The notes beneath the pieces were generated by a model, which saw nothing but the letters and a program-made list of their open reading frames with translations, did no database searches and had not been told where the DNA came from. Shown here one piece after another: positions 2,260 to 57,996 of a stretch of 64,000 nucleotides of DNA (its first letter is position 1; each line of letters opens with the position of its first letter). The DNA lies in contig DATAJY010000009.1 in assembly GCA_036261885.1 (NCBI GenBank), forward strand, positions 52,814 through 116,813, read 5' to 3'. The position numbers and the translations under genes were made by a program. This DNA is from Thermoanaerobaculia bacterium. GTDB lineage: Bacteria; Acidobacteriota; Thermoanaerobaculia; Gp7-AA8.

Positions 2260-2687
2260 AAGCGTTTCGTCATCAGCTGTCGTGAATGTTCGGCGAATCC
2301 GCGGCGTATGTAGAGACGCTTCGCCGCTTCGTTCGTGAATTCGACCTCGAGGTGGAGCGCGCGAATGCCATGCTCGCGGCAGACGCGCTCCGCCTCATCG
2401 ATCGCCGCGGTGCCCAGACCGTTGCCCCGCGCCTCCGGGACGACGTAGAGCTCGTCGAGAAAGGCATCGCGCCCGCCGAATTCGACGCTGAAGCCGAACG
2501 CCACAATGAAATACCCCGCCGATTCGTTCATCAGCAGGACCCGCCCCAGCGCGGCATTCGTCAGAACCTCGCGCAACGCCGCTTCGAACACCTCCGGGCG
2601 ATAGGAATACCCTTCTTCTTCGTAAAACGCGCGATGCATGCGCAGCAGTTGTGAGAGATCGTCGGGTGTGGCCGTACGGAAGGTCAT
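2253..2687 (-). CDS. GNAT family N-acetyltransferase
   Basis: acetyl-CoA-binding motif RGNGLGTAAIDEAE and C-terminal YIRRGF; start taken at MTFRTATPDD. Confidence 0.75.
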   Translation of the reverse strand: MTFRTATPDDLSQLLRMHRAFYEEEGYSYRPEVFEAALREVLTNAALGRVLLMNESAGYFIVAFGFSVEFGGRDAFLDELYVVPEARGNGLGTAAIDEAERVCREHGIRALHLEVEFTNEAAKRLYIRRGFAEHSRQLMTKRFQ

Positions 2688-2749
2688 CGTGAGCGCTGCA
2701 TTGTAGCGGCCGTGCGGCCCCGGCCTCATGCCCGCCGAGGACGCGCGCC

Positions 2750-3184
2750 TCACAGACTCTTATCGAACGTCTTCTGCGTTTTCGTCACCGCATAGCCGAG
2801 GCGCTCGTAAAACGTGTGTGTCCGCTCGCGGACCACGTTGCTGCGGACGCGCATGCGTGCGAGGCCGCGTGCACGTGCCCACTCTTCCGCGGCAGCAACG
2901 AGACGCGCGCCGATGCCGTGCGAGCGCAGCGGCGCATGGACCACGAGTCCACGGATCTCGACATACGAGCCGGTCTCGATCGAGAGCACTTCCGCGAGGT
3001 GCATCCAGCCGGCGGTCTCGCTTTCGACTGTTGCGACGAGCACGGCATCGCCCGCGCTCGCGGAGACACGCGCGAGACGTGCACGCATCTCCGTTTCCGT
3101 CGATGGATAGCCGAGCTCGCCCGCGAGCATCGCCAGGGCCGCGGCATCGTCCAATGTCGCGTTGCGAACCATCACGTCCGGCAT
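2750..3184 (-). CDS. GNAT family N-acetyltransferase
   Basis: motif RSHGIGARLVAAAEEWA and YERLGY; start at MPDVMVRNATLDD, which overlaps the stop of the upstream radical SAM gene. Confidence 0.75.
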   Translation of the reverse strand: MPDVMVRNATLDDAAALAMLAGELGYPSTETEMRARLARVSASAGDAVLVATVESETAGWMHLAEVLSIETGSYVEIRGLVVHAPLRSHGIGARLVAAAEEWARARGLARMRVRSNVVRERTHTFYERLGYAVTKTQKTFDKSL

Positions 3185-4032
3185 GTCACTCCATCCACCC
3201 AGCATGTGTGGCAGGCGCCGTATTTCAAGGGAAATTCTCGCAGTGTTCCGGCGAGCGTCTCCCCCATCCGCGCTTCCGGCTCTTCGATGAGAATCGGGCA
3301 GACATAGACGCCTTTGCTCGTGATCATGCGGCACGAGGAGCATTGCAGCGTCGCCGCTTCCGCACCGGTCAACGACTCATTCGTCAGCCGTTCCCAATCC
3401 TCGTACGCGCGTGTGCGCGTTTCCTCCGCGCCGATCCGGAAGAGCGACAGCACTTTCAGACGCGGACGTTCGAATCCGAATCCGCGAATGAGCTCCAGGA
3501 ATCGCGCGCGTCCCGCTTCACTGCCGACACCCTCCGCGGCGGTGGTCACGGTAATGACCGGATTGAGTCCCGCCTCCGCCAGATTGCGCAGCCCGAGCAT
3601 CACCCGATCCCAAACGCCCGCGCCGCGAATGGCATCGTGCGATTCGGCGTCGAAGCCGTCGAGACTGACGCGCAGGTCGAGCGAATACTCACTCGCATCG
3701 AACAGAGCGCGCAATGCGCGGCACGTTTCGGGACGCAACAGCATTCCGTTCGTCAGCACCGTGGCCGGTCCCTGTTTCAGCGTCGCTTCGAGAATGGCCA
3801 GCATGTCGCGATTCATGAACGGCTCGCCGCCGGTGAAGTAGTACTCGCGTACGCCGAGCGCACGCGCTTCGCCGAGCCACCGCTGCACCTCCGCGAGCGA
3901 GAGCATTTCGTGGGAGCGATTGCGCGGCGACGACGAGATGAAGCAATGCGTGCACTCGATGTTGCAGAGCGTTCCGGCCACCTGGAACCAGAGCGTATCG
4001 AGGGCGAGCAGCGGAACGGAGGGATGGGTCAT
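3172..4032 (-). CDS. radical SAM protein with C-terminal Cys-rich domain (rSAM/Cys-rich, selenodomain-type family)
   Basis: CNIECTHC = CxxxCxxC radical SAM cluster motif; GGEPF SAM-binding motif; C-terminal cysteines QCSSC...VCP...ACHTCW...TC; 4-nt overlap with the upstream FAD oxidoreductase gene. Confidence 0.8.
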   Translation of the reverse strand: MTHPSVPLLALDTLWFQVAGTLCNIECTHCFISSSPRNRSHEMLSLAEVQRWLGEARALGVREYYFTGGEPFMNRDMLAILEATLKQGPATVLTNGMLLRPETCRALRALFDASEYSLDLRVSLDGFDAESHDAIRGAGVWDRVMLGLRNLAEAGLNPVITVTTAAEGVGSEAGRARFLELIRGFGFERPRLKVLSLFRIGAEETRTRAYEDWERLTNESLTGAEAATLQCSSCRMITSKGVYVCPILIEEPEARMGETLAGTLREFPLKYGACHTCWVDGVTCRT

Positions 4033-5171
4033 AAGGAATCGAGAATCGTTTCGAGCTGCGATAAGCCGGTCTGCAATAAGAACCCATTCGACCGGCCATA
4101 AGAACGGGAACCGACGAAAAAGAAGCCCGGCTCGCCCGATTGCAGGTCAGCCGGTTTCACGGGAGGGACGGAAAGACAATCGGTGATGTTCGAAATGGCC
4201 TTGTAGAGACGGCCGCCGCCTTCGGTGATCGGCGAGACTTCGACAGCCAGCTCGGATAGAAATCGATGATCGGGTTTGTAGCCGGTGAAGGCGGCCACCG
4301 CATCCGCCTCGATCACGCGGCCGCCGGTCAGCGCGACGACGACAGGACCGTTGTTCTGCGCGACGCTTTCGATCTGCGCTTTTCGTTCGACACGCAGAAA
4401 CCGCGGCGGCGCCTCGGCCAGTGCGTTCGCCTTCGCGACGACGCTCTGGCGCTCCGGCAGCGGATCGTTCATCACCTCTTCGCATGGTCTGCGATTCGCG
4501 GACCGCACGGCCCAGACGACGCGCGTCGCCGGCGCTTCCGTGGCCAGTTCCTCGAGCATCCCGATGGCATTCGCGGCGGAATGACCGTCGCCCAACAGAA
4601 GGATGGTTTTGTCGCGCAGCGATTCTCTGGCGGCGTTCAATTCGCCGAGAAAACGAATGGCCGGGCGGGACAAGCGCGACTCACCGCGCGCCGGCAGGCC
4701 GCCGACGCCCATCGGCCGCGGCACGACGAGACCGCCGCTCGCGTCGAGAATGATTTCGGCCTCGAACGATTCGTCGTTGTCGCACAGCACGCGGAACGGG
4801 CGCTCTGCGCGCAACGGATGATGGGCGTAATCGCTGCGCGTGAGACCGCGCCGTCCGATGGCGATGACGTTCATCCCGGTGCGCACGCGGCCGCCCAGCG
4901 GCGCACGCCGCGTCAACGGCAACAGCACGCGTTCGACGTATTCGGGACCGGTGAGCAGCGCATCATCGGCCGGCAGGGCATCGCCGAGGATTTCGCGCAT
5001 CGGCGCAGAAACATTCATCTGCAACGGCGAGAAAAATCGCGTGGGGCCCCAGGTGCGCAGGGACGCACCGACCTCTCCCCGCTCGAGCACGATGACGTCG
5101 TGCCCGCGCGCGGCCGCGCCGAGGGCGGCGGCGATTCCCATCGGCCCGGCGCCGATGACGAGCACGCGCAT
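4029..5171 (-). CDS. FAD/NAD(P)-binding oxidoreductase (flavin monooxygenase-like)
   Basis: N-terminal Rossmann fingerprint MRVLVIGAGPMGIAAALGAAARGHDVIVLER; second dinucleotide motif LLLGDGHSAANA. Confidence 0.7.
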   Translation of the reverse strand: MRVLVIGAGPMGIAAALGAAARGHDVIVLERGEVGASLRTWGPTRFFSPLQMNVSAPMREILGDALPADDALLTGPEYVERVLLPLTRRAPLGGRVRTGMNVIAIGRRGLTRSDYAHHPLRAERPFRVLCDNDESFEAEIILDASGGLVVPRPMGVGGLPARGESRLSRPAIRFLGELNAARESLRDKTILLLGDGHSAANAIGMLEELATEAPATRVVWAVRSANRRPCEEVMNDPLPERQSVVAKANALAEAPPRFLRVERKAQIESVAQNNGPVVVALTGGRVIEADAVAAFTGYKPDHRFLSELAVEVSPITEGGGRLYKAISNITDCLSVPPVKPADLQSGEPGFFFVGSRSYGRSNGFLLQTGLSQLETILDSL

Positions 5172-5503
5172 TACGACTCCTTGCGCGCGAGCGCGTTACA
5201 CGACTGCGCCCAGTGTGCGATCGTGCCGCCGCCGCGGATCACCGCCGCGACTCCGATGGCTTCGGCCATCTCTTCCGGACTGAAGCCGGCATCGCTGCAG
5301 GCCGACGAATACGAGTCGATGCAATACGGCTCCTGAATCGCGTACGCGACCGCCAGCGCAATGAGCTTCTTCGTTTTCTCATCGAGCGCGCCCGGCGCCA
5401 TGGTGGCGGTGTACCAGTTCAGAAACGCGTCCCAACCCTTCGGATTGGCCTTCGAGATTTCACCGAAGCGAGCGAGATCCTCGGAGAGGTAATAGCTGGG
5501 CAT
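5171..5503 (-). CDS. carboxymuconolactone decarboxylase (CMD/AhpD-like) family protein
   Basis: 110-aa protein with CMD-type helices (KKLIALAVAYAIQEPYCIDSY); shares 1 nt with the downstream gene start. Confidence 0.65.
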   Translation of the reverse strand: MPSYYLSEDLARFGEISKANPKGWDAFLNWYTATMAPGALDEKTKKLIALAVAYAIQEPYCIDSYSSACSDAGFSPEEMAEAIGVAAVIRGGGTIAHWAQSCNALARKES

Positions 5504-5621
5504 GGTCGGGTTCTCCTTTTCGAAATACGAACCGCCGGCGGCCTGGCCGCCGAGCGTGCGTGCGTGAATGGAGTGGTGGCGATGGTGCTGCCGCGCTCGG
5601 CCGCCGTCGCGGCGGCGTCAC

Positions 5622-6269
5622 TCACGCCGGTGGGGCGCGTGGGGCGAGTTGCAGCAGTGCGGGTGCGAACGGAATCGCGCGAATGAGCGGCACGTCGATG
5701 CGCACCGCAATCCAACCGCGCCACGCGCGCTCGTGTCGCGCGGCGTCGAGCGCCACACGGGAATCGACGTCGGTGATCGCATCGAGCACGACCAGCGATC
5801 CGATTCGTTCGCGGCAACGCGCGAGCGTCAGTTCCGAAAGCAACTCGCGATCGCACGTGGAGAACGCAATGAAGTTGATGCCGCCATCCCGCGCCGGGGC
5901 AACGACCGTGGCACCCGCCGCGACCGACTGCAGGACGGAAGCGAGACACGCCGGCGGTGGTGCATCGATCGCCGCAAGTACGATCGCATCGAAACGCGAA
6001 AGCGCATCGGACGACGCATTGGCCACTCGCTCTCCGAACGACGCGCCGCGCTGCGGCAGCCATTCGCGCGAGACCGACGGTGCGATGGCCGCGAGTGCGG
6101 CGAGGTCCGCTTCTTCGCAGGCGATGAGCGGCGTGGCCCCGGCCCTTGAAGCGGACTCGAGCCAGGCGGCGATTACACGACGAAACAGCGGCGCAGCGAA
6201 GCGCATCCCTTTCGCGGCTGCTTCCCGTTCCGGGCTGCGCGCGAACAGAACCACCGCCGTTCGTTTCAT
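5622..6269 (-). CDS. DUF2064-type transferase (rSAM/selenodomain-associated transferase 1 family)
   Basis: start at MKRTAVVLFARSPEREAAAKG..., the characteristic DUF2064 N-terminus; the ORF-track extension upstream of this Met is probably not coding. Confidence 0.65.
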   Translation of the reverse strand: MKRTAVVLFARSPEREAAAKGMRFAAPLFRRVIAAWLESASRAGATPLIACEEADLAALAAIAPSVSREWLPQRGASFGERVANASSDALSRFDAIVLAAIDAPPPACLASVLQSVAAGATVVAPARDGGINFIAFSTCDRELLSELTLARCRERIGSLVVLDAITDVDSRVALDAARHERAWRGWIAVRIDVPLIRAIPFAPALLQLAPRAPPA

Positions 6270-6293
6270 CAACGGCGCGAAGTGTACCTGCTT

Positions 6294-6307
6294 ATGACAT
6301 CGGTCAT
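6294..6307. promoter_or_regulatory. perfect palindrome ATGAC-N4-GTCAT in the divergent promoter region between the DUF2064/rSAM operon and qNOR
   Basis: seen in sequence: atgacatcggtcat; 59 nt upstream of the norB ATG and 25 nt upstream of the divergent gene. Confidence 0.3.
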
Positions 6308-6365
6308 GTGCGACGAGGCGGTGACTTCCTACCGTGGCTGCAGGGAAAAAAAGGAAGGGAGCATC

Positions 6366-8627
6366 ATGCAATACCGCAAGCTCTGGATCACACTCGGCAT
6401 CGTCGTTCTGGTGTCCTTCACGATTCTCGGCATCGCCGGCTACAAAGGCATCCAGTCGGCGCCGCCCATCCCGTCGAAAGTCGTGACCACCGACGGTGCC
6501 GTGCTCTTCACCGGGGAAGAAATCCGCAACGGACAGAACGTCTGGCAGTCTCTCGGCGGCCAGGAAATCGGCTCGATCTGGGGGCACGGCGCCTACGTCG
6601 CTCCCGACTGGACCGCGGATTACCTCCATCGCGAGCTCACGCTCATCCTCGATCGCTGGGGCTACGCCACGGCCGGCAGCGAGCAGCAGGCCGCGTTGCG
6701 CCAGCGTCTGCAGACGATGATGCGCACCAACACCTACAACCCGGCCACCGGCGTCGTCACGATCACGAAAGAACGGCAGCAGGCCTTCGAAACACTAGCC
6801 GCGCATTACGCGAGCGTCTTCGGCGCCGGCCGTCCCGAATACGCGATCGCGCGCGGCACGCTCACCGACGCGACGAAATCGCGCGAGATGGTGGCGTTCT
6901 TTTTCTGGACCGCCTGGTCGAGCGCCACGAACCGCCCCGGCAAGAGCATCACCTACACGCAGAACTGGCCGCACGAACCGCTCATCGATCTGAAGCCGAC
7001 CACGGCCGCGGTGATGTGGTCGATGATCAGCGTCATTCTTCTGATCGGCGGCATCGGCGCGCTGGTCTGGTTCTACGTCGCACACCGCGAGCCGCATAAG
7101 AACGACGACGAAGACGAGCTGCCGATCACCGATCCGCTCCTCGGCGCGAATCCGACGCCGTCCCAGAAGGCGACCATCAAATTCTTCCTCACTGCCGCGG
7201 CATTGTGGGTGTTGCAGATCGCGCTCGGCGCGCTCGTCGCGCATTACGGTGTCGAAGGGGCGTCGTTCTTCGGCATCCGCATCGATCACATCCTTCCGTA
7301 CAACATCGTCCGGACATGGCATCTGCAGCTCGGCATCTTCTGGATCGCCACGACGTGGCTCGCCACCGGTCTCTACATCGTTCCGGCGCTGGCCGGCAAA
7401 GAGCCGAAAGGGCAGCGCTTCGCGATCAACATGCTCTACGGCGCGGTCGTCTTCGTCGTGCTCGGCTCGATGACCGGCGAATGGCTCGGCATCAAACAGA
7501 AACTCGGCAACCTCTGGTTCTGGTTCGGCTCGCAGGGGTACGAGTACGTCGACCTCGGACGCGTGTGGCAGATCCTGCTCTTCACGGGACTCTGCTTCTG
7601 GCTCTGGCTGATGTGGCGCGGCGTCAAACCGGCGCTCGATCGCAAAGACTCCTCCCGCTCGCTGCTGATGCTCTTCACCGTCTCCGCGATCGCCATTCCG
7701 ATGTTTTATGGCGCCGGCCTGATGTACGGACAGCGCTCGCATGTCGCCGTCGCTGAATACTGGCGCTGGTGGGTCGTCCATCTCTGGGTCGAAGGGTTCT
7801 TCGAAGTCTTCGCCACGGTGGTGATCGCGTTCCTCTTCACGCGTCTGCGGCTGCTGCGAATCGAAGCGGCCACGAAGGCCGTGCTCTTCTCGACGATCAT
7901 CTTCCTCGGCGGCGGCATCATCGGCACGTTCCATCACCTCTACTTCACCGGCATGCCCGCCTCGATCCTGGCCCTCGGCTCGGTGTTCAGTGCACTGGAA
8001 ATCGTGCCGCTCTGTCTGGTCGGCTTCGAAGCATGGGAAAACCTCAAGCTCTCGAAGGGAACGCAGCGAGCGACGTGGGTTCCGGCCTATCGCTGGCCGA
8101 TCTACTTCTTCGTCGCGGTCGCGTTCTGGAACCTCGTCGGCGCCGGCGTGTTCGGCTTCCTCATCAATCCGCCGATCGCGCTTTATTACATGCAGGGTCT
8201 CAATCTCACGCCGGTGCACGGACACACCGCCCTGTTCGGCGTGTACGGCATGCTCGGGCTCGGTCTCACGCTCTTCTGCCTGCGCGCGCTTCGTCCGGGG
8301 TTGCAGTGGAAAGAGAAAACCGTCGGTGTCGCCTTCTGGCTGATCAACGGCGGTCTGGTGCTGATGGTCGCGCTGTCGATGTTGCCGGTCGGCATCCTGC
8401 AGGCGAATGCCGCGATCAGCGAGGGAGTCTGGTTCGCGCGCTCTGCCGAGTTTCTGCAGACGCCGCTGATGCAGAACCTCCGCTGGCTGCGCGCGATCGG
8501 CGATACCTGCTTCGCCATCGGCGCGCTGATGCTGGCGTGGTTCATGGTCGGCTTGCTCACCGGCCACTCCTACGACGTCACCACGGAAACGGAACCGGCA
8601 CCGAAAGGCGGCGTGCCGCAATACTGA
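6366..8627 (+). CDS. norB: quinol-dependent nitric oxide reductase, single-subunit qNOR (NorB/NorZ family)
   Basis: 753 aa; N-terminal TM plus periplasmic extension, then a 12-TM haem-copper-oxidase-like core with conserved His ligands (HLWVEGFFEVF, TFHHLYF, HGHTALFGVYGM); RBS ggaagggag before the ATG. Confidence 0.9.
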   Translation: MQYRKLWITLGIVVLVSFTILGIAGYKGIQSAPPIPSKVVTTDGAVLFTGEEIRNGQNVWQSLGGQEIGSIWGHGAYVAPDWTADYLHRELTLILDRWGYATAGSEQQAALRQRLQTMMRTNTYNPATGVVTITKERQQAFETLAAHYASVFGAGRPEYAIARGTLTDATKSREMVAFFFWTAWSSATNRPGKSITYTQNWPHEPLIDLKPTTAAVMWSMISVILLIGGIGALVWFYVAHREPHKNDDEDELPITDPLLGANPTPSQKATIKFFLTAAALWVLQIALGALVAHYGVEGASFFGIRIDHILPYNIVRTWHLQLGIFWIATTWLATGLYIVPALAGKEPKGQRFAINMLYGAVVFVVLGSMTGEWLGIKQKLGNLWFWFGSQGYEYVDLGRVWQILLFTGLCFWLWLMWRGVKPALDRKDSSRSLLMLFTVSAIAIPMFYGAGLMYGQRSHVAVAEYWRWWVVHLWVEGFFEVFATVVIAFLFTRLRLLRIEAATKAVLFSTIIFLGGGIIGTFHHLYFTGMPASILALGSVFSALEIVPLCLVGFEAWENLKLSKGTQRATWVPAYRWPIYFFVAVAFWNLVGAGVFGFLINPPIALYYMQGLNLTPVHGHTALFGVYGMLGLGLTLFCLRALRPGLQWKEKTVGVAFWLINGGLVLMVALSMLPVGILQANAAISEGVWFARSAEFLQTPLMQNLRWLRAIGDTCFAIGALMLAWFMVGLLTGHSYDVTTETEPAPKGGVPQY

Positions 8628-8668
8628 GATGTCATTCTGTGCCGCGCAGACGGCACGGCTCCCCCCAT

Positions 8669-8705
8669 AATGAACGGCGGGCTGCCTTGCGGCCCGCCGT
8701 TCATT
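8669..8705 (+). terminator. GC-rich hairpin (aatgaacggcgggc-loop-gcccgccgttcatt) without a T-tract, ending 1 nt before the MBL gene start codon; a terminator or translational occlusion structure
   Basis: seen in sequence: 14-bp perfect stem; it would sequester the region immediately upstream of the ATG at 8707. Confidence 0.35.
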
Positions 8706-8706
8706 C

Positions 8707-9825
8707 ATGAAGAAGTTTCTGAAGATCGCCGTCCTCGTCGCCGTCGTACTGGCGGTCGCGACCTGGTGCGTCTTTCAGCTCCCGCAATTCGGCGGGACAT
8801 TCGAAGGCGAGCGGCTGGCGCGCATGCAGCGCTCGCCGGAATTCATCAACGGACGATTTCAGAACGTGCCGCCGCAGCAGACCGACAACTCGCTGCGCAA
8901 GATGTACCGGCTCTACACGCAGGGACAGATACGCGAGCCGCAATTCGCCGTACCGGTGCTCGACGTTTCGCTCGAGCGTCCGCCCTCGCGCGAGCTGCAG
9001 GCCGTCTGGCTCGGCCATGCGAGCGTGCTCGTGGAGCTCGACGGCGTGCGCATCCTCACCGATCCGGTGCTCTCCGACTACGCGTCCCCCGTTCCGCCGC
9101 TCGGACCGAAACGTCTGCACCGCCCGCCGATCGCCATTCCGGATCTCAAAAGCGTCGACGCGGTGGTGATCTCGCACGATCACTACGACCACCTCGACCT
9201 GGAGACCACGCGGCAGCTGGCGCGGAACGGCACGCACTTCTTCGTGCCGCTCGGCGTCGGCGCGCATCTCGAACGGTGGCACGTTCCATCCGCGCAGATC
9301 CACGAAATGGATTGGTGGGAATCGACGCCCTTCCAGGGCATCACCATTCATTGCACGCCGACGCGGCATTACAGCGGACGCAAACGGATGGACAACTCGA
9401 CGCTCTGGTCGTCGTGGTTCATCAAGGGCACGCGCTCGGTCTATTTCAGCGGCGACACCGGCTATGCACCGCACTTTCGGGAGATCCGCCGCCGGCTGGG
9501 GGCGGTCGATCTGACGCTTCTGAAAGTCGGCGCATACGGCGAGACATGGCTCGACATTCACATGGATCCGGAATCGGCCGTGCGTGCTCACCGCGATCTC
9601 GGCGGCCACACGATGCTGCCGGTGCATTGGGCGACGTTCAATCTTTCGTACCACGCGTGGGAAGAGCCGATCGTCCGCACGCTCGCCGCCGCGCAGCGCG
9701 AGCACATCGACGTCATCACTCCCCGTCCCGGTGAGCCGTACGCATTCGGACGACCATTCCGAAATACCGATTGGTTTCGGCGCCTCCCCTCCCGTGCATC
9801 CGGGCGGGATCGCCTGCCTCATTGA
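8707..9825 (+). CDS. MBL-fold metal-dependent hydrolase (NAPE-PLD/Zn-dependent hydrolase-like), secreted or membrane-anchored
   Basis: N-terminal signal/TM MKKFLKIAVLVAVVLAVA; metallo-beta-lactamase motif ISHDHYDHLD. Confidence 0.75.
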   Translation: MKKFLKIAVLVAVVLAVATWCVFQLPQFGGTFEGERLARMQRSPEFINGRFQNVPPQQTDNSLRKMYRLYTQGQIREPQFAVPVLDVSLERPPSRELQAVWLGHASVLVELDGVRILTDPVLSDYASPVPPLGPKRLHRPPIAIPDLKSVDAVVISHDHYDHLDLETTRQLARNGTHFFVPLGVGAHLERWHVPSAQIHEMDWWESTPFQGITIHCTPTRHYSGRKRMDNSTLWSSWFIKGTRSVYFSGDTGYAPHFREIRRRLGAVDLTLLKVGAYGETWLDIHMDPESAVRAHRDLGGHTMLPVHWATFNLSYHAWEEPIVRTLAAAQREHIDVITPRPGEPYAFGRPFRNTDWFRRLPSRASGRDRLPH

Positions 9826-9857
9826 GTGGGCCTGCCCCGGCCGGCCTCGACACCGGT

Positions 9858-9873
9858 GACAGTCGTCACTGTC
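9858..9873. promoter_or_regulatory. perfect palindrome GACAGT-N4-ACTGTC upstream of the decahaem cytochrome gene
   Basis: gacagtcgtcactgtc, about 85 nt upstream of the ATG at 9958. Confidence 0.25.
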
Positions 9874-9957
9874 GGCAATGCTCTCCGATCACCACTGTGG
9901 AACCGGTACTCCTTAAACAATCCGTAGCGGATCGATACGCCACCAAGGAGGTTCACG

Positions 9958-12111
9958 ATGACGGCGTTTCTCAGAGCACTTCTCGTACTGGCCACGGCCG
10001 GGACGATTGCATTTCCCACGCAGCCGCCGCCGAAGCTCACCGCTCCGGAGACGGCCACCAACGGCGGACGCAAACGCGCCGTCGGCACTCCTTCGACTCC
10101 GGTTCCCTCGCGCCCTGAATTCGTCGCGACGGATCTCGAGTACTACCTGACCGACGACGGCATTGCCTACATCCGTCCGGGACTGAAGGTCACGATCAAA
10201 TCGGTGACCGTCCCGACCGATCGCAAGCCGGTCGTCGAATTCACGCTGACCGACAACTTCGATCAGCCGCTCGATCGCCTCGGCAAAACGACGCCGGGCG
10301 TGGTTTCGACGTCGTGGCTGCTGGCCTGGTACAACCCGGAGACGCGCCTCTACACGTCGTACATCACGCGCACCGTGAACGCCGCCGCCGGCAGCCCGAA
10401 GGCCGGCACGTCCGCCGTGCAGGCCACCGGTGAGAACGTCGCCGCGAACTACACCGACAAAGGCAACGGCCTCTACTCGTACAAGTTCAACGCGGCGCTT
10501 CCGGCGAACTTCGACGTGACGAAAACGCACACGCTCGGCGTTTACTCCAGCCGCAATCTCACCGAGCAGATCGGCAAGAACTACTACGCCGACGAAGAGT
10601 TCGACTTCCGTCCCGACGGCCAGACCGTCGTCGAAAAGTGGGACAAGATCCGCGACGTCGGCTCCTGCCAGAACTGCCACGACGCGCAGACGTTCGGTCT
10701 GCACGGCGGCTCGCGCCGCGACGTGAAGCTCTGCGTGATGTGCCACACGCCGCAGACCACCGACCCCGACACCGGCAACAGCGTCGACATGGCGTTGATG
10801 ATCCACAAGATCCACGGCGCCGCGCTGCTCAGCACCCCGTACGTGATCTGGGGCAACGGCAACAGCATTCACGACTACTCCGAAGTCACCTATCCGCAGG
10901 ACACGCGCAACTGCAAGAACTGCCACGAAGGCACGGTGGCCACGGCCATTCCGACGCAGAAGGAAGTCTGGTACACGCAGCCGAGCCGCCGCGCGTGCGG
11001 CGCCTGCCACGACAGCATCAACTGGGTCACAGGCGAAGGCCACCCGGCCGGACCGCAGACCAGCGACGCCACCTGCGCCACCTGCCACGTGCCCGACAGC
11101 GGCAGCGAGTTCGACGCCTCGGTCAAGGGCGGCCACATGATCCCGACGAAGTCTTCGCAGCTTCAGGGCATCAAGGCCACGATCGTCAGCGTGTCGAACG
11201 TGAAGGCCGGTGAGAAGCCGACCATCGTCTACAAGTTCACCAACAACAAGGGCGAGGTGCTCGACGGCACGAAGTTCTCGACCTTCGCACCGATCCACGC
11301 CGGCCCGACGTCGAGCTACACGACGTACTTCCGCGAGTCCGTCACCGCGACGAGCACGAACAAAGCGGCGTTCGACGCCGCCACCGGCAACACCACCTAC
11401 ACGTTCACCAATCCGATCCCGGCCGGATCCACCGGCACCTGGTCGTTCAGCGGTGACTTCTACATCACCTCGACGCTCAAGCGCGGCGACGGCAAGGCCG
11501 ACATTACCGGCGTGCGCGATGCCGCCATCAACCCGCAGAAGTACGTCGGCCTCAACGGAGCCACGACGGTTCCGCGCCGCACGTCGGTCTCGATCGCGTT
11601 GTGCAACGAGTGCCATGACAGCCTCGGCCTGCACGGCGGACAGCGCCGCACGATCGAAGAGTGCGTGATGTGCCACAACCCGGTGAAGGGCGACAAAGCC
11701 GTTCGTCCCGCCACCGAGGGTGAAGAGGAATCGGTCTCCTTCCAGCGTCTCATCCATCGCATTCACAGCGGTCACGAGCTGACGCAGGACTTCACGGTCT
11801 TCGGCAACGGCAGCAGCCGCCACAACTACAACGAGGTCACCTATCCGGGCGATCGCCGCAACTGCGCCTCCTGCCACGTCAGCGATGGACAGCAGCTTCC
11901 GGCCGCCGGTGATCCGGTGATCGCGAAACGCGACTTCTTCTCGCCGCAGGGCTCGGGCACGGCCGCGTGCCTCGGCTGCCATGACAATCGCGATGCGGCA
12001 GCGCACGCGTTCCTGAACACCACCACGTTCGGCGGACAGCCGGCCGAGGCGTGTGCGACGTGCCATGGCAAAACCAAAGAGTGGTCCGTCGACAAATCGC
12101 ATGCCCGGTAA
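9958..12111 (+). CDS. mtrC: MtrC/OmcA-like decahaem c-type cytochrome (beta-domain / pentahaem / beta-domain / pentahaem architecture)
   Basis: 717 aa; signal peptide; exactly 10 CxxCH motifs in two groups of five (aa ~235-385 and ~540-717) separated by a haem-free beta-rich segment, with ~230 aa haem-free beta-rich N-terminus; RBS aaggagg. Confidence 0.8.
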   Translation: MTAFLRALLVLATAGTIAFPTQPPPKLTAPETATNGGRKRAVGTPSTPVPSRPEFVATDLEYYLTDDGIAYIRPGLKVTIKSVTVPTDRKPVVEFTLTDNFDQPLDRLGKTTPGVVSTSWLLAWYNPETRLYTSYITRTVNAAAGSPKAGTSAVQATGENVAANYTDKGNGLYSYKFNAALPANFDVTKTHTLGVYSSRNLTEQIGKNYYADEEFDFRPDGQTVVEKWDKIRDVGSCQNCHDAQTFGLHGGSRRDVKLCVMCHTPQTTDPDTGNSVDMALMIHKIHGAALLSTPYVIWGNGNSIHDYSEVTYPQDTRNCKNCHEGTVATAIPTQKEVWYTQPSRRACGACHDSINWVTGEGHPAGPQTSDATCATCHVPDSGSEFDASVKGGHMIPTKSSQLQGIKATIVSVSNVKAGEKPTIVYKFTNNKGEVLDGTKFSTFAPIHAGPTSSYTTYFRESVTATSTNKAAFDAATGNTTYTFTNPIPAGSTGTWSFSGDFYITSTLKRGDGKADITGVRDAAINPQKYVGLNGATTVPRRTSVSIALCNECHDSLGLHGGQRRTIEECVMCHNPVKGDKAVRPATEGEEESVSFQRLIHRIHSGHELTQDFTVFGNGSSRHNYNEVTYPGDRRNCASCHVSDGQQLPAAGDPVIAKRDFFSPQGSGTAACLGCHDNRDAAAHAFLNTTTFGGQPAEACATCHGKTKEWSVDKSHAR

Positions 12112-12120
12112 ATCGGGACT

Positions 12121-12150
12121 GGTGGAGGAGAGCGCATCGCTCTCCTCCAC
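12121..12150 (+). promoter_or_regulatory. intercistronic stem-loop between mtrC-like and mtrA-like genes
   Basis: gtggaggagagcg-catc-gctctcctccac; 13-bp perfect stem, no T-tract; candidate attenuator or processing site. Confidence 0.35.
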
Positions 12151-12181
12151 GCCTGAGATGCACTCGTAGAAAGGGACGACG

Positions 12182-13093
12182 ATGTCGATCAGACAAACAG
12201 CCATCGGAGGAATCGTCCTCCTCCTCTTCATCGGTCTCTCGCCGGGATCGTTGTTCGCACAGGAGCAACAGCAGCCCGCGGCCGAGAGCTCCGGGATGAC
12301 GTGCGGCGATTGTCACGAGCAGGCGAAGGATTTCGTCGCCAATCCGCACGCGCGCGGCCACGTCGAAAGCGGCACCGTGCCGCGGACGGTATGCGAGTCG
12401 TGCCACGGCGACGGCACCGCACACATGGAGGCGGGCGGCGACACGTCGCTCATCAAAGTGCCGCGCGGTTTCGACGGCGCCGAGAACACCTGCGCCTCGT
12501 GCCACGGAAAAACCACCGAGCGCCGGTCGCATCGTATGGGAGCCCATGCGAATCAGCCGGCCGTGAACTGCCTCTCCTGCCACGCCATTCACAAACCCGC
12601 GCAGACTCTGCACCTCGTCGCCAGACCGGAGCCCGCACTTTGCGCGAGCTGCCACGGCACGCAGGCCTCGTCGTTCCGCAACAAGCCGTACACGCACCGG
12701 CTGGGCGGATCGTCGATGGGCTGCACGTCGTGTCACGACCCGCATGCGCGGCCCGGCCGCGAGAACGTGCGCACCACCGCTTCCGGCGAAACGGTCTGCC
12801 TCAACTGCCACGGTGAAAAACGCGGTCCGTACGTCTTCCAGCATGGCGGCCTGGCCGCGGCCGAGAACGACTGCGCGACCTGTCACGATCCGCACGGCTC
12901 GGCCAATCCCAATCAACTGCGTCGCGCCACCGTCGCGCAGGTCTGCCTGGAATGCCACTCGCCGCTGACGTCCGAGACTCTCGGCTCGCAGCCGCCGTCC
13001 TTCCACAACCTCCGCCTCCCGCGCTACCAGAACTGCACCACCTGTCACGTTGCGGTCCACGGCTCCAACCGTTCGCCGCAGCTCCTGAAGTGA
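12182..13093 (+). CDS. mtrA: MtrA/DmsE/PioA-like periplasmic decahaem c-type cytochrome
   Basis: 303 aa; signal peptide; 10 CxxCH motifs evenly spaced (CGDCH, CESCH, CASCH, CLSCH, CASCH, CTSCH, CLNCH, CATCH, CLECH, CTTCH); size and haem count match the MtrA family. Confidence 0.85.
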   Translation: MSIRQTAIGGIVLLLFIGLSPGSLFAQEQQQPAAESSGMTCGDCHEQAKDFVANPHARGHVESGTVPRTVCESCHGDGTAHMEAGGDTSLIKVPRGFDGAENTCASCHGKTTERRSHRMGAHANQPAVNCLSCHAIHKPAQTLHLVARPEPALCASCHGTQASSFRNKPYTHRLGGSSMGCTSCHDPHARPGRENVRTTASGETVCLNCHGEKRGPYVFQHGGLAAAENDCATCHDPHGSANPNQLRRATVAQVCLECHSPLTSETLGSQPPSFHNLRLPRYQNCTTCHVAVHGSNRSPQLLK

Positions 13094-13101
13094 GGACGAC
13101 C

Positions 13102-15027
13102 ATGCGAATGAAAAACAATTTCACGTGGCTCGCACTCGCCATCACCGTTCTCCTCTCCACCACCGCCTTCGCGCAGGTCACTACCGAGATCGAGGCCGGC
13201 TATCGCTTCACTTCGGTGAGCGGCAACGAAGATCTCTATCGCACGCAGATCGATGAGCGCGAAGGCTTCGTCATCCGCTCGTTCTCCGTCTTCACTCCGC
13301 AGTCGACCGGCCTCACCGATTTCCTGCGCGTCGATGCGACCGACATCGGTGCCGGTCCGTCGAGCTCCGTCCGCGTCGACACCGGCCGCGAGGGCGCCTA
13401 TCGCCTTCGCGTCGGCTGGCGCAGCATGGATGCCTTCAGCGCGTTGCCCGCGTATGCGAATCCGCTGCTCGGGCAGGGCATCATCCCCGGCCAGCACACG
13501 TGGGATCGCGACCGCACGATGTTCGACGTCGACCTCGAGCTCCTTCCGAGCGCGAAGATCACGCCGTTCATCGGCTACTCGCAGTTCCGCAACGAAGGAC
13601 CCGGCACCACGACGTACACCCTCGGCGGCGACGATTACCTGCTCCGGCAGAACCTCGACGAGAAAGAGACCGAGCTGCGCATCGGCACCGGCTTCAACCT
13701 CGGCCCGGTCTACGGCTCCGTCACGCAGGGGTGGCGCAATCTCGAGAGCGATGAAGTCCTGTCGCTCGCGCGTGCCGGCAACAACGGCAGCACACCGGTC
13801 CTCGGCACCAATCCCGACGCATCGCAGATCATCCGCAGCAGCAGTCTCGATGCGGACACACCGTTCACCTCCATCTTCATCAACGGCGACGTGCTCAAAA
13901 ACACGAAGCTCATCGGCAGCTTCCAGCGCTTCTCTTCCGAGGCGGACGGCAGTGACGATGAGGTTGCGAACGGCAACTTCGTTTCGTTCGCTCTGGGACG
14001 TTTCTTCACCGGCTTCAACGAGTCCGTCGACTCGCGGGCCAAAAACCAGACGTGGCGCGGCAGCGCGCGCGTCGAGTCGACGCTCCTGTCGAAGCTCGAC
14101 GTGATGGCCGGGTATCGCACCGAGCATCGTGAGCTCACCGGCAGCGCCTTGATCAACACGCTCTTCCTCGACAGCATCACGTTCGGCGGCGTCGACAAGC
14201 GCAACCTCGAAGAGATTCTCGAAGCCGACAGCTCGATCGACCGCGACGTCGACGTCCTCGAAGCGGCGCTCTCGATGCGCAACCTCGGCCCGTTCGCGTT
14301 CCGCGTCAGCGCCAGCGTCGCCGACTACGACATCACCGTCGATCCCGACCTCGAAGAGATCGTCGTCCCGGGCAACCAGTCCGGCGATTTCTCGCGGCGG
14401 GTGAACACGATCGATGCGAATGCCAGCTACTCGAAGTCGCTGTTCACGATCGGTGCGTCCGCGCGTCTCGATGATGCGAATCGCGCCGTGCTGCGCACCG
14501 ACTACACGACGCGCGATCGCTACCGCGTGCGCGCCTCGTTCCACACGCCGAACAACATGGTTCGGCTCGGCTTCACCGGCGAGGAAACGAACGTCGAAAA
14601 CGATCTCGACGGCGGCGGCTTCAATGCCGACGGCCGCTCCTGGACGATCGACGCCGAAGCCGCGCCGGTAGACGTGCTTCGCGTGCGCGCGTCGTACTCG
14701 ATTCTCGATTCCGAGAGTCGCGCGCGGATTCGCCGCCCCGAAACGTTCGTCGTCGAAACGTGGACGAACGACGAAGACGGCGAAGTGCTCGAAGGCGGCA
14801 TCGCCCTGCTGCTCGCACCGGTGTCGCTCGATCTCAATCTCTCGCGTTACGAAAACGAAGGAACGCTCCCGTTCAGCGTCGACCGCTGGCGGATGCGGAC
14901 CGTCTACGACTTCAAAACGCACTACGGCGTCTCGGCCGAATGGGCCCGGGACCGCTACGAAGAAGAACCCGCGTACGGACAATTCGACGCCGACCGCTAC
15001 GGAATCTTCTTCCGCTACCGCAGGTAG
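13102..15027 (+). CDS. mtrB: MtrB/PioB-like outer-membrane beta-barrel porin (sheath for the decahaem cytochrome)
   Basis: 641 aa; signal MRMKNNFTWLALAITVLLSTTAFAQ; long amphipathic beta-strand-rich sequence ending in an aromatic C-terminus (GIFFRYRR); starts 9 nt after the mtrA-like stop. Confidence 0.7.
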   Translation: MRMKNNFTWLALAITVLLSTTAFAQVTTEIEAGYRFTSVSGNEDLYRTQIDEREGFVIRSFSVFTPQSTGLTDFLRVDATDIGAGPSSSVRVDTGREGAYRLRVGWRSMDAFSALPAYANPLLGQGIIPGQHTWDRDRTMFDVDLELLPSAKITPFIGYSQFRNEGPGTTTYTLGGDDYLLRQNLDEKETELRIGTGFNLGPVYGSVTQGWRNLESDEVLSLARAGNNGSTPVLGTNPDASQIIRSSSLDADTPFTSIFINGDVLKNTKLIGSFQRFSSEADGSDDEVANGNFVSFALGRFFTGFNESVDSRAKNQTWRGSARVESTLLSKLDVMAGYRTEHRELTGSALINTLFLDSITFGGVDKRNLEEILEADSSIDRDVDVLEAALSMRNLGPFAFRVSASVADYDITVDPDLEEIVVPGNQSGDFSRRVNTIDANASYSKSLFTIGASARLDDANRAVLRTDYTTRDRYRVRASFHTPNNMVRLGFTGEETNVENDLDGGGFNADGRSWTIDAEAAPVDVLRVRASYSILDSESRARIRRPETFVVETWTNDEDGEVLEGGIALLLAPVSLDLNLSRYENEGTLPFSVDRWRMRTVYDFKTHYGVSAEWARDRYEEEPAYGQFDADRYGIFFRYRR

Positions 15028-15043
15028 TCCTCCTTCCCCTTTT

Positions 15044-15085
15044 GAAAAAGACGCCGCCCGGGAAACCGGGCGGCGTCTTTTTTTG
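15044..15085 (+). terminator. rho-independent terminator closing the norB-MBL-mtrCAB block
   Basis: aaaagacgccgcccgg-gaaa-ccgggcggcgtctttttttg: 16-bp GC stem followed by a T7 run. Confidence 0.9.
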
Positions 15086-15200
15086 CACGGCTTCGATTTG
15101 CGGACCGAGCGGCCACTTTTGCCGGATGGGACGGGAATCCCACCCGAAAGAATGACGCGAAAGCGCACCTGCCGACCTCCGCAGCGCTATCATTCCATCC

Positions 15201-16343
15201 ATGCCACCCAAACCAGACGAGCTCCCTCTCACTACTGAAGGTCCGGTCGAGCCAGGCGAAGGCAAGCTCGAAGACGTACTGGCCATCTGTCTTTCCGGCG
15301 GCGGGTATCGGGCCATGCTCTTTCACCTCGGCACGCTCTGGTACCTCGCCGATGCCGGCTATCTGCCGAAGCTCGATCGCGTGTCCAGCGTGTCGGGCGG
15401 CTCCATCACCGCGGGTGTGCTCGCGTTGAAATGGAAGGAGCTGCAGTTCGATGCGAACGGCATCGCCACGAATTTCAGAGACGTCGTGGTCGCGCCGGTG
15501 CGCAAGCTGGCCGACAACACCATCGACGCCGGCAACATCATCAAGGCGACGCTCACGCCCGGCACCTCGATCAACGATCGCATCATCGCCTCGTACAAGA
15601 AGCTCGTCTTCGGCGAGGCCACGCTGCAGGACATCGTCGACAAGCCGCGCTTCGTCATCAACGCCACGAATGTGCAGACCGGCTCGCTCTTCCGCTTCTC
15701 GAAGCCCTACATCGCCGACTATCGCATCGGCATGATGGACAAGCCGAAGACCTCGCTCGCGGCCGCGGTGGCGGCATCATCGGCGTTTCCGCCGGTGCTC
15801 TCCCCCGCGCGCATCGACTTCAAACAGAGCGACTGGACGAAGCTCGAAAACGGCGAGTGCTCGCAGCCGCCGTTCACGACGAAGGTGCTGCTCACCGACG
15901 GCGGCGTCTACGACAACATGGGCATCGAGACGGCGTGGAAACGCTGCAAGCGCGTGCTCGTCAGCGATGCCGGCGGCAAGTATCAACCGGAGAAGAATCC
16001 ACATTCCGACTGGGCGCGCCACGCGCTGCGCATCAACTCGACGATCGACAATCAGGTGCGCAGCCTGCGCAAACGCCAGGTCGTCTCCGCATTCAACGAT
16101 CCGACCGACGGACACATCGGCGCGTACTGGGGCATGTGGACGAAGCCGTCGGATTACGCGACGTTCTCCCTGAAGCTCGACGATGCCGCCTGCCTCGAGC
16201 TCGCCAAGACGCCGACGCGTCTGGCGAAGCTGCCGTCCGAGAAACAGGAAGCGATCATCAACTTCGGGTACGGGATGGCCGAGCGCGCGGTGCGCACGCA
16301 TTACGACAAGGCCGCATTCGCGCCGAAGAAGTTTCCGTACTAG
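15201..16343 (+). CDS. patatin-like phospholipase
   Basis: oxyanion motif GGGYRA, nucleophile elbow VSGGS (GxSxG), catalytic Asp in TDGGVYDN. Confidence 0.85.
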   Translation: MPPKPDELPLTTEGPVEPGEGKLEDVLAICLSGGGYRAMLFHLGTLWYLADAGYLPKLDRVSSVSGGSITAGVLALKWKELQFDANGIATNFRDVVVAPVRKLADNTIDAGNIIKATLTPGTSINDRIIASYKKLVFGEATLQDIVDKPRFVINATNVQTGSLFRFSKPYIADYRIGMMDKPKTSLAAAVAASSAFPPVLSPARIDFKQSDWTKLENGECSQPPFTTKVLLTDGGVYDNMGIETAWKRCKRVLVSDAGGKYQPEKNPHSDWARHALRINSTIDNQVRSLRKRQVVSAFNDPTDGHIGAYWGMWTKPSDYATFSLKLDDAACLELAKTPTRLAKLPSEKQEAIINFGYGMAERAVRTHYDKAAFAPKKFPY

Positions 16344-16442
16344 CGATCACTGCGCCGCGGGCACGTGCAGTTTGTGCTCGCGGTAGAACGGTCACGCGTT
16401 CGCGCCGCCGAGGCGGCGGAAGATCGGGGCGTACGACTCCGA

Positions 16443-17489
16443 ATGGTACCGGGACCGCGATTTGCCTTCCCCGCGGCACGGGAGGCCTTCTTGCTTCGAG
16501 TCTTATTGATCGCCGGATCGCAGCGCCGCCAGTACAACTGCCCTGGTGTGGACGGCAAGGCGCGTACATTTCTGAATCGCATGACCGCGCGGCTGCAGGG
16601 CGCGTTCGACATCGACACCGTCGACCTCGCCAACGTCTACGGCGCCGAACGCATCCAGCCGTGCAACGCCTGCGTCTCGACGTCGATGGCGCTCTGCGTC
16701 TGGCCGTGCAACTGTTTCGAGAAGAACGACAAGGACGAGCCCGATCTGATGTGGAACCTCGACCTCTACGCCCGGCTCGATCAAGCCGATGCCTGGGCCA
16801 TCATCGGGCCGGTCAACTGGTACGCACCGTCATCGAATCTGAAATTGATGTTCGATCGCCTCGTCTGCGCGAACGGCGGCAATCCGCGCGAAGAGTTGAT
16901 CGAGCACAAGAACCCCGAGCTGGCGATGGCGCTCGAGCACACCGACGCATGGCAGCAGCTCAGCGTCAATCATCTCGAAGGACGCACGGCCGCGTTTTAC
17001 TGCTACGGTGACGGCGGCGGCGACGAGCTCGATGGCGACGGCCGCCCGAAGAAACTGCGCCACAAGCCGTGGTTCGATCCGAAGGACGAGCCGTTCGCGC
17101 GCGGCCGCGATGCCTACGCGCCGCTGGTCTGGCAGTGCCGCTACAGCGGCATCGAAGTGCCGGATGCGCTGTGGCATTACACGGAGTTCGGCAATCACAA
17201 GCCGTACAGCGACAACCAGGCCGAGGACATCGACGACGCGACCTACTTCGAGTTCGACGCGTGGGCCGACGCGTTCGCGCGGCACGTGCACGACAAAGGA
17301 AAGGTGCCGCCGGGACGCTGGCGCGCGTACGGCTACGAGCCGCCGAAGCACCGGCTCGCCGATCTGAAGCTCGCCTGGCGCGATCGAAAGATGCGTCTCG
17401 GACATCCGCCCGAAGGCTCGTCCGTCGAGGCGCAGCAGAACGAAAAGCTCAATGACGATGTGACGCTGCGGCCCAGGCCGGGCGGATAG
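16443..17489 (+). CDS. flavodoxin-like fold NAD(P)H-dependent FMN reductase family protein with a Cys cluster; start uncertain (ATG 16443 or TTG ~16494)
   Basis: LRVLLIAGSQRR flavodoxin-like N-terminus; Cys motif CNACVSTSMALCVWPCNC. Confidence 0.45.
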   Translation: MVPGPRFAFPAAREAFLLRVLLIAGSQRRQYNCPGVDGKARTFLNRMTARLQGAFDIDTVDLANVYGAERIQPCNACVSTSMALCVWPCNCFEKNDKDEPDLMWNLDLYARLDQADAWAIIGPVNWYAPSSNLKLMFDRLVCANGGNPREELIEHKNPELAMALEHTDAWQQLSVNHLEGRTAAFYCYGDGGGDELDGDGRPKKLRHKPWFDPKDEPFARGRDAYAPLVWQCRYSGIEVPDALWHYTEFGNHKPYSDNQAEDIDDATYFEFDAWADAFARHVHDKGKVPPGRWRAYGYEPPKHRLADLKLAWRDRKMRLGHPPEGSSVEAQQNEKLNDDVTLRPRPGG

Positions 17490-17560
17490 CGCGTTCAGAA
17501 ACGCGGATGACACGAAGGTGCAACAGTGCGTGGCATCACTTCCTCCTAAAATGCGCGGCC

Positions 17561-34240: not shown

Positions 34241-34270
34241 AGAAACGGCGGGCTTTCTGCCCGCCGTTCT
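34241..34270. terminator. bidirectional hairpin terminator
   Basis: agaaacggcgggc-tttctg-cccgccgttct. Confidence 0.5.
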
Positions 34271-40127: not shown

Positions 40128-40152
40128 GAGGGGCCTGCTATGCCAATGCTTG

Positions 40153-45172: not shown

Positions 45173-47800
<2,628 letters not shown>

Positions 47801-57966: not shown

Positions 57967-57996
57967 AAACGGCGGGCCTGAAGGCCCGCCGTTTTC
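57967..57996 (+). terminator. rho-independent terminator
   Basis: aaacggcgggcc-tgaa-ggcccgccgtttt, then cattgtt. Confidence 0.8.

Follow-up and report, generated by a model that had tools for sequence, protein, structure and literature searches.

The locus analysed here raises the question of whether a nitric oxide (NO) reductase gene and an outer-membrane electron conduit that stand side by side on one strand are also transcribed together. In the window, by which we mean the whole stretch of 64,000 nt (contig DATAJY010000009.1 of a Thermoanaerobaculia bacterium), norB, a gene for a metallo-beta-lactamase (MBL)-fold hydrolase and three genes of the MtrCAB type follow one another on the plus strand, and an initial annotation had taken them for one co-directional block, closed by a single strong terminator, in which NO reduction might be co-regulated with the conduit. 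We favour, with moderate confidence, a different reading, in which the block would consist of adjacent but separate transcription units rather than one operon: a norB unit that would be driven by its own promoter and stop at a terminator-type hairpin, and mtrC-hairpin-mtrA-mtrB, which would form a porin-cytochrome operon of its own, old in origin and serving extracellular electron transfer. If NO reduction and the conduit are co-regulated at all, this would then be at the level of the regulon, via related CRP/FNR-family regulators. The genes concerned and the terminator that follows them are these:

6366..8627, plus strand: norB, gene for a quinol-dependent NO reductase (qNOR), 753 aa
8707..9825, plus strand: gene for an MBL-fold hydrolase (NAPE-PLD-like), Pfam Lactamase_B_2
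9958..12111, plus strand: mtrC-like gene for an outer-surface decahaem cytochrome, 717 aa
12182..13093, plus strand: mtrA-like gene for a periplasmic decahaem cytochrome, 303 aa
13102..15027, plus strand: gene for an MtrB-like outer-membrane barrel, 641 aa
15045..15087, plus strand: canonical intrinsic terminator with a 17-bp stem, a GAAA loop and a T7 run, bidirectional in form

The gene identities of the initial annotation were upheld, and the positions and gaps proved to be essentially as it gave them, with intergenic distances of 79, 132, 70 and 8 nt from norB to the barrel gene; the last gap is 8 nt and not 9, and the ATG of the barrel gene is at 13102, not 13103. Past the terminator, the run of plus-strand genes goes on to 20308 with genes for a patatin, an FMN reductase and an M16 peptidase, so that co-directionality alone says little about the limits of a transcript.

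The region upstream of mtrC speaks against a single co-transcribed block, since a promoter/operator is conserved there in relatives, including those in which the upstream gene lies on the opposite strand. The relatives are Thermoanaerobaculia metagenome-assembled genomes (MAGs); a search with a profile of the barrel protein yielded 67 loci in species genomes. In all eight close loci, a stretch of about 110 nt ahead of mtrC is conserved, whatever gene stands upstream (alignment A2), and in L073 and L075 that gene is on the opposite strand; the promoter must therefore sit in the upstream region of mtrC itself, where the following elements were found:

9856..9869, palindromic, no strand assigned: CRP/FNR-type box GTGAC-AGTC-GTCAC upstream of mtrC
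9889..9930, plus strand: promoter/leader block with TCACCAC (9889-9895) and AACAATCCGTAGCGG (9916-9930), invariant columns in alignment A2

With at most one mismatch allowed, 22 of 60 loci proved to have the box at 70-120 nt before mtrC, compared with 2.7% of random windows, and it is present at nearly every locus whose MtrC identity is 52% or more. Both sequence groups of the family have a -10-like hexamer at a distance of about 52 nt from the centre of the box, and AACAAT is likely the -10 element of the mtrC promoter in the window. Taken together, these elements suggest an activator-dependent promoter in which the GTGAC-N4-GTCAC box would be placed about 65 nt upstream of the start. As a separate observation, a ccmC-like cytochrome c maturation gene is divergent from mtrC in a second Thermoanaerobaculia group (L005, L011, L052 and L062; ~6.6-6.8 kb, 5.5 kb in L011), and a GTGAC-N4-GTCAC box stands between the two genes there.

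A second argument against the single block comes from the 3' end of norB, where the following hairpin was found:

8669..8705, plus strand: 14-bp GC-rich perfect-stem hairpin of terminator type, 41 nt past the norB stop codon and adjoining the ATG of the MBL gene

The norB-MBL spacer folds at -47.9 kcal/mol (z = -6.4), and the hairpin has a weak T-tail (TTCATTCAT). Its arms, ACGGCGGGC and GCCCGCCGT, reappear past two other genes of the window (34244 and 57967) and, in relatives, past norB (L069, L074), past an M16 peptidase gene (L074) and past mtrB in L071/L072, there with a TTTTCTTTT tail. In L072, a 91%-identical relative, a canonical T-tract terminator is found 3' of norB, and in L160 a T-rich terminator-like hairpin has the same position. 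By the clade's own usage, the norB hairpin would thus be an element that ends a unit, although probably a leaky one in the window. The statement that the terminator at 15045-15087 is the only canonical one in the block is literally true, and yet misleading, because the norB hairpin is of a family that ends other genes of the clade. A permissive first scan for hairpins gave 200 matches and was discarded in favour of a scan for perfect stems of at least 9 bp, which returned eight in the 64 kb, all of them just past stop codons and three of them inside the block.

Hairpins with near-identical arms (AACGGCGGGC ... GCCCGCCGTT) recur at gene ends behind unrelated genes of this genome and its relatives, and they look like a shared terminator or a repetitive extragenic palindromic (REP)-like element of the clade. 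The copies are located as follows:

window: 8669-8705, 34244-34268 and 57967-57994
L071/L072: 11950-11971
L074: 6696-6717 and 20371-20393

The gene order in relatives gives a third argument. The comparison of synteny that had been suggested as a check on the single block was carried out, and it showed the five-gene order to be limited to the closest relatives, with the block interrupted or lacking norB elsewhere (percentages are MtrB identity to the window):

L157 (96%): five-gene order as in the window
L069 (88%): five-gene order as in the window
L071/L072 (84%): norB, a minus-strand GyrI-like gene, a second MBL gene, a minus-strand DUF3224 gene, the MBL gene and mtrCAB
L071 (84%): an extra minus-strand gene of 485 aa before mtrCAB
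L076, L074, L160 and L004 (70-56%): norB directly upstream of mtrCAB, without the MBL gene
L073 (81%), L075 (58%) and L003 (57%): without norB
L159 (75%): norB promoter remnant 340 nt upstream of mtrC, without norB

The five-gene order is thus found in the window, L157 and L069 only (at least 88% MtrB identity), genes on the opposite strand split norB from mtrC in L071/L072, and norB is absent from L073, L075, L159 and L003. The remnant in L159 (ATGACATCCATCAC GTGCGACG, positions 40-70) indicates what is apparently a clean deletion of norB. Linkage of norB to mtrCAB is confined to one subclade, in which it was seen in 8 of 12 informative lineages, and it was seen in none of about 50 more distant mtrCAB loci. 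The order mtrC-mtrA-mtrB is intact in essentially all of the 67 loci that are long enough, norB being upstream in one of them (L004), and mtrCAB is kept as a unit without norB in about 60 Thermoanaerobaculia/Holophagae genomes. Seen from norB, mtrCAB lies downstream in one of 80 metagenomic norB loci, the L071 contig, and the 7.6 kb downstream of norB in L077 (83% identical) hold no mtrCAB. These patterns point to repeated loss of norB or its separation from mtrCAB. The flanking synteny downstream of mtrB (M16 peptidases, SUI1, MTS, DUF1801 and a BNR protein) is kept with or without norB, the M16 peptidase being 66% identical between the window and L074. In some Holophagales/Acidobacteriota, mtrCAB clusters are duplicated in tandem or an extra copy of mtrC is present (L039, 6796-17119; L061, 6623-14138).

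Only the window, L157, L069 and L071/L072 have the MBL gene between norB and mtrC, and the distribution of the gene suggests a late, lineage-specific insertion, made right behind the norB hairpin. Its ATG follows the hairpin by one base (8706-8709), no Shine-Dalgarno (SD) sequence or promoter is visible for it, and an SD sequence is wanting in every context (window; L069, 5631; L072, 5649). Expression via leaky read-through from norB is therefore probable. The protein matches the human NAPE-PLD structure 4QN9 over the catalytic domain (E = 4e-55) and has an N-terminal signal/anchor sequence; it has no evident part in NO metabolism or electron transfer.

The norB unit itself would start in the intergenic region that norB shares with a divergent DUF2064 gene, at the following elements:

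6294..6307, palindromic, no strand assigned: CRP/FNR-type box ATGAC-ATCG-GTCAT in the norB/DUF2064 divergent intergenic region
6330..6335, plus strand: -10-like hexamer TACCGT (TAnnnT), motif TAC(C/T)(G/T)T kept in alignment A3

Upstream of norB, five loci with diverged flanks share the 16-nt core CATGACATCGGTCATG without a single change (alignment A3), and TAnnnT is conserved at about 30 nt from the box centre, with the same spacing in L160. We infer from this arrangement that the box is placed near -41.5, in class-II geometry. In L160, the same box type and -10 architecture stand upstream of ric, followed by norB, and in L081, a more distant norB locus, a CRP/FNR regulator gene is followed by ric and norB. 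These neighbours place norB in an NO-stress module, and the unit would most likely respond to NO and/or anoxia and serve NO detoxification at the level of quinol. In a look by eye at the aligned promoters, without a formal test, nothing conserved was found upstream of norB for NsrR, NorR or sigma-54 motifs. On the other side of the intergenic region, a divergent minus-strand cluster (2253-6269) comprises genes for DUF2064 (TIGR04282-like), a CMD/AhpD-like protein, an FAD-dependent disulfide oxidoreductase, a radical SAM protein and a GNAT protein; the first three also adjoin norB in L069, L072 and L078, radical SAM and GNAT were confirmed in L069 alone, and the cluster is not kept beside norB in L074 or L160. 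Just 25 nt separate the norB box from the start codon of DUF2064, and the box could influence both genes.

Two exact TGAC-N4-GTCA sites occur in the 64 kb (0.70 expected), and these are the norB and mtrC boxes. Variants with one mismatch number seven, against 6.8 expected, and being at chance level they leave just the two exact sites as meaningful. The norB/ric boxes of the clade have ATGAC on the left in all cases examined and a TCAT end in all but the L159 remnant, whereas the mtrC boxes are of the GTGAC...TCAC type, often with one or two mismatches. In E. coli, the same position of the box separates FNR sites from CRP sites. Because the norB/ric boxes have A and the mtrC boxes G at this discriminating position, the two promoters are probably served by two paralogous CRP/FNR regulators. 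In L011 and L023, a gene for a CRP/FNR-family protein with an N-terminal Cys cluster and a CRP-like recognition helix (RETVTR) lies at a distance of 5-7 kb from mtrCAB, and in L011, the sole locus checked for this, the gene is preceded by a GTGAC-N4-GTCAC box of its own (GTGACGTTCGTCAC). No gene for a CRP/FNR regulator and no other N-oxide gene was found by Pfam among the ~45 open reading frames of the 64-kb window. What survives of the proposed co-regulation of norB with the conduit is therefore limited: both promoters carry CRP/FNR-type palindromes and the adjacency is kept in 8 of 12 lineages, so that regulon-level co-induction of norB and mtrCAB is possible, but a five-gene unit shared by them is not supported.

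Within the mtrCAB unit, a further hairpin separates the two cytochrome genes:

12122..12150, plus strand: intercistronic hairpin with a 13-bp perfect stem (z = -3.9)

Across the family its position is constant and its sequence differs widely. The mtrC-mtrA hairpins of L074 and L075 are out of register in alignment A4, which is thus unfit for covariation, and the column-wise approach was replaced by folding each locus together with shuffled sequences and a control region. In the 70 nt after the mtrC stop codon, a stem of at least 9 bp was found in 57 of 69 loci, with a mean folding free energy (dG) of -31.4 kcal/mol for the real and -22.9 kcal/mol for the shuffled sequences; the control, 70 nt after the mtrA stop codon, gave such stems in 21 of 64 loci and no signal in dG (-19.9 vs -19.4). 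About 30 nt, including the SD sequence, remain between the hairpin and mtrA in the window (the mtrC-mtrA spacers elsewhere in the family measure 42-133 nt); this leaves no room for a promoter, and the hairpin must therefore be read through. It probably tunes expression, setting the ratio of MtrC to MtrAB by partial termination or by stabilisation of the mRNA. The initial annotation had proposed that both internal hairpins tune expression rather than terminate; both are real, and tuning is plausible for this family-wide one, while the norB hairpin is of the terminator type.

The canonical terminator past the barrel gene (AAAAAGACGCCGCCCGG-GAAA-CCGGGCGGCGTCTTTTT+TT) would close the mtrCAB unit. 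It folds at -37.1 kcal/mol (z = -5.8) and has a comparable hairpin 3' of mtrB in 44 of 69 family loci, in which the stem within 70 nt of the stop codon reaches at least 9 bp (mean dG -29.2 kcal/mol, shuffled -22.6 kcal/mol). A consensus terminator scan overlooks it, because its T-run pairs with the upstream A-run. In an Rfam search of 5000-16000 at E <= 1, just sub-threshold sRNA matches to the terminator hairpins were obtained and no known riboswitch or leader. Relative to the window, a cyanophycin synthetase gene and a peptidase S51 (cyanophycinase-like) gene are inserted between mtrB and the patatin gene in L069 (12161-17440) and L071/L072 (12039-15556), and the stretch behind the mtrB terminator appears to be a hot spot of insertion and deletion.

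Several points weigh against the division into separate units. The norB hairpin has no strong T-tract, and the MBL gene lacks a visible SD sequence and promoter, so some read-through from norB must occur, which could extend into mtrC. The promoters were assigned by conservation, a sigma-70 consensus scan of 4000-18000 having found 0 sites (1.9 expected), and the geometry of the mtrC box, at about -65, is not the textbook class-I position. Hybrid GTGAC...GTCAT boxes exist beside the FNR-like gene of L011 and upstream of norB in L085 and L114, and thus one regulator could serve both promoters. Finally, the adjacency that is kept in spite of 66% M16 peptidase identity may reflect selection for linkage. 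If these points are pressed, a five-gene operon would start at the norB promoter, run through both hairpins without T-tracts and stop at 15045-15087, which would agree with the common direction of the genes, their gaps of 8-132 nt, the need for read-through ahead of the MBL gene and the demonstrable read-through of the mtrC-mtrA hairpin in the family. This we consider very unlikely, given that the mtrC promoter/operator region is independent of the gene upstream, that the norB hairpin belongs to the clade's terminator family and is replaced by a canonical terminator in L072, that opposite-strand genes lie between norB and mtrC in L071/L072, and that the order does not extend beyond relatives with at least 88% MtrB identity.

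It is possible, if doubtful, that the neighbourhood reflects inheritance and nothing else, norB having been inserted beside mtrCAB once in the ancestor of the subclade and not yet separated from it everywhere, with no regulatory or functional relation between the two. The downstream synteny, which has lasted through equal divergence whether norB is there or not, the loss of norB in four lineages and the moderate relatedness of the genomes, as judged from the M16 peptidase, are what such a history would leave; the shared operator family of the two units and a breakpoint immediately upstream of norB, across which norB stays with mtrCAB (window vs L074/L160), are not. Another reading is that of one regulon, in which a single CRP/FNR-family regulator acts on both R-TGAC-N4-GTCA-Y boxes and co-induces the qNOR and the Mtr-like conduit under anoxia or NO, either because Fe(II) from Fe(III) reduction would form NO with nitrite and make detoxification necessary or because electrons from Fe(II) would reach the qNOR through the quinone pool. 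The two exact sites in 64 kb, the hybrid boxes and an adjacency that outlasts the rearrangement of the region upstream of norB are in line with this. Nevertheless, we regard it as unlikely, since the box types differ systematically (ATGAC/TCAT vs GTGAC...TCAC), as do the promoter geometries (about -41.5 vs about -65), loss or separation of norB took place several times, there is no norB at about 50 other mtrCAB loci and no mtrCAB at norB loci elsewhere, and the window holds no regulator gene. A stronger form, that one Thermoanaerobaculia subclade joined the ric/qNOR module and the Mtr-like conduit under one CRP/FNR operator family, possibly under one regulator, and switches on iron redox and NO turnover together, is quite unlikely in our view; if true, the joint switching might protect against NO formed by Fe(II)-nitrite chemodenitrification or bring about Fe(II)-driven NO reduction via the quinone pool.

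The proteins encoded in the block are of known kinds. NorB combines PF22085 (NorB_cytochrome_c-like, 3.9e-63) and PF00115 (COX1, 5.8e-61) in one chain of 753 aa, and its residues 3-735 align over the full length to qNOR structures of Alcaligenes xylosoxidans (E = 4e-239). It contains no CXXCH motif, so that the N-terminal cytochrome-c-like domain has no haem c site, and Pfam/NCBIfam searches of the neighbouring open reading frames found no norC-like gene; by sequence it is a bona fide single-subunit quinol-dependent NO reductase. Given this dependence on quinol and the missing haem c site, electrons could pass between the qNOR and the conduit only indirectly, through the quinone pool. Direct hand-over of electrons from MtrA to the qNOR was considered and rejected on the same grounds.

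The MtrC-like protein has 10 CXXCH motifs, scores 443 bits with TIGR03507 (OmcA/MtrC family; cut-off 209), carries PF22113 and matches the MtrF structure 3PMQ (E = 4e-36); its N-terminus (MTAFLRALLVLATAGTIAFPTQPPP) has no lipobox Cys, and no alternative start was found upstream. The MtrA-like protein has 10 CXXCH motifs and a signal peptide, scores 188.8 bits with TIGR03508 (DmsE family), just below the cut-off of 192.2, and aligns through residues 25-298 to 6R2Q chain A of the Mtr complex (E = 3e-29). That PDB chain, which is MtrA, carries the molecule name 'Cystathionine beta-synthase', which looks mislabelled and might mislead name-based searches. For the barrel protein, no Pfam or NCBIfam match was obtained at E <= 0.01, PF11854 and TIGR03509 included, a profile of 27 homologues found no MtrB among the PDB sequences, and among the matches listed a precomputed PF11854 match was present in 2 of 120 homologues. 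Its AlphaFold2 model (pLDDT 79.6, 26 strands) retrieved MtrB (6R2Q_B) as the best match in Foldseek, with E = 6e-15 and template modelling (TM) scores of 0.65/0.65, followed by 22-strand TonB-dependent transporters at about 1e-9, five orders of magnitude worse. The protein is thus predicted to be a 26-strand outer-membrane beta-barrel with the MtrB fold. The genes mtrC, mtrA and mtrB are contiguous and in this order in the window, as they are at about 60 related loci. From this homology, and from the Fe/Mn reduction by T. aquaticum cited in PMC8528874, the conduit may be expected to carry electrons through the outer membrane, either to extracellular acceptors or from them.

Two further observations concern distant parts of the window. 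On the minus strand at 37575-41550, a gene for an nSTAND1 NTPase with a C-terminal trypsin-like domain (850 aa) is adjacent to one for a TIR-domain protein (465 aa), a pair that may serve anti-phage defence, and at 45173-47800, also on the minus strand, a gene encodes an 875-aa fusion of a Ser/Thr protein kinase with PD40/WD40-like beta-propeller repeats.

One operon that couples NO reduction to the conduit would, if true, suggest a new respiratory wiring; the evidence points to separately controlled units instead, and the norB-MBL-mtrCAB neighbourhood is mostly ordinary, the qNOR and the MtrCAB-type conduit being of known kinds. What the locus does bring out is that an MtrCAB-type conduit is widespread among the Thermoanaerobaculia, a group abundant in soils and sediments, and that its barrel escapes sequence-based detection. 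Surveys based on sequence may therefore miss it; the mBio 2022 survey of MtrCAB (PMC8805035), for example, lists within the Acidobacteriota only Acidobacteriia. The conserved CRP/FNR-type operator and the intercistronic hairpin offer handles for studying the regulation of mtrCAB, and the recurrent juxtaposition of an NO-stress module with mtrCAB gives a testable, if modest, hypothesis on cross-talk between iron and nitrogen. A literature search joining qNOR, MtrA and extracellular electron transfer retrieved no paper.

Among known systems, the qNORs of Alcaligenes xylosoxidans (6QQ5/8BGW), Neisseria meningitidis (6L3H) and Geobacillus (3AYF) share full-length homology with NorB (E = 4e-239 to 1e-170) and, like it, are single subunits with an N-terminal cytochrome-c-like domain without a haem-binding motif; no notable difference was seen. 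Compared with the NAPE-PLD family (4QN9), the MBL protein is bacterial and has a signal/anchor sequence. The regulators DNR, NNR and FNR control the nor promoters of denitrifiers and NO-stress regulons such as norB, ric/ytfE and hcp, an account of which is reportedly given, for example, by Rodionov and colleagues in 2005. The norB promoter may be likened to these: its box is a 5-4-5 palindrome with a TGA-N6-TCA core that would lie about 41.5 nt upstream of the start, it is apparently used for ric in L160, and a CRP/FNR gene stands beside ric-norB in L081. The half-site is ATGAC here instead of TTGAT/TTGAC, and the cognate regulator is not encoded in the window; distant norB genes are preceded by TTGAC-N4-GTCAA boxes.

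Intercistronic stem-loops set differential expression within the Rhodobacter puf and E. coli malEFG operons. As there, a stable GC-rich hairpin stands between cistrons of what would be one operon in mtrCAB; here its position is kept while its sequence drifts. Multihaem cytochrome and beta-barrel clusters have been described in Thermoanaerobaculia marine MAGs and Thermoanaerobaculum aquaticum (Flieder et al., 2021; PMC8528874), where they are syntenous among the MAGs and were proposed to reduce metal oxides. They share with mtrCAB the taxon and the kind of cluster; a search of that article for the term 'nitric oxide' gave nothing, and a neighbouring qNOR appears to be unreported there. With respect to MtrCAB of Shewanella (6R2Q; MtrF, 3PMQ; OmcA, 4LMH), the locus differs in its Acidobacteriota host, in an MtrC-like protein without the lipoprotein Cys, in an MtrA-like protein just under the TIGR03508 cut-off, in the conserved hairpin between mtrC and mtrA, in the lack of a nearby cymA-like quinol dehydrogenase gene and in a barrel without detectable sequence similarity to MtrB/PioB (11% identity). 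It agrees with that system in the order mtrC-mtrA-mtrB, in decahaem proteins of the MtrC/OmcA family and of the MtrA/DmsE-like kind and, as far as the predicted structure indicates, in a 26-strand barrel whose best match is Shewanella MtrB itself (6R2Q_B, TM 0.65).

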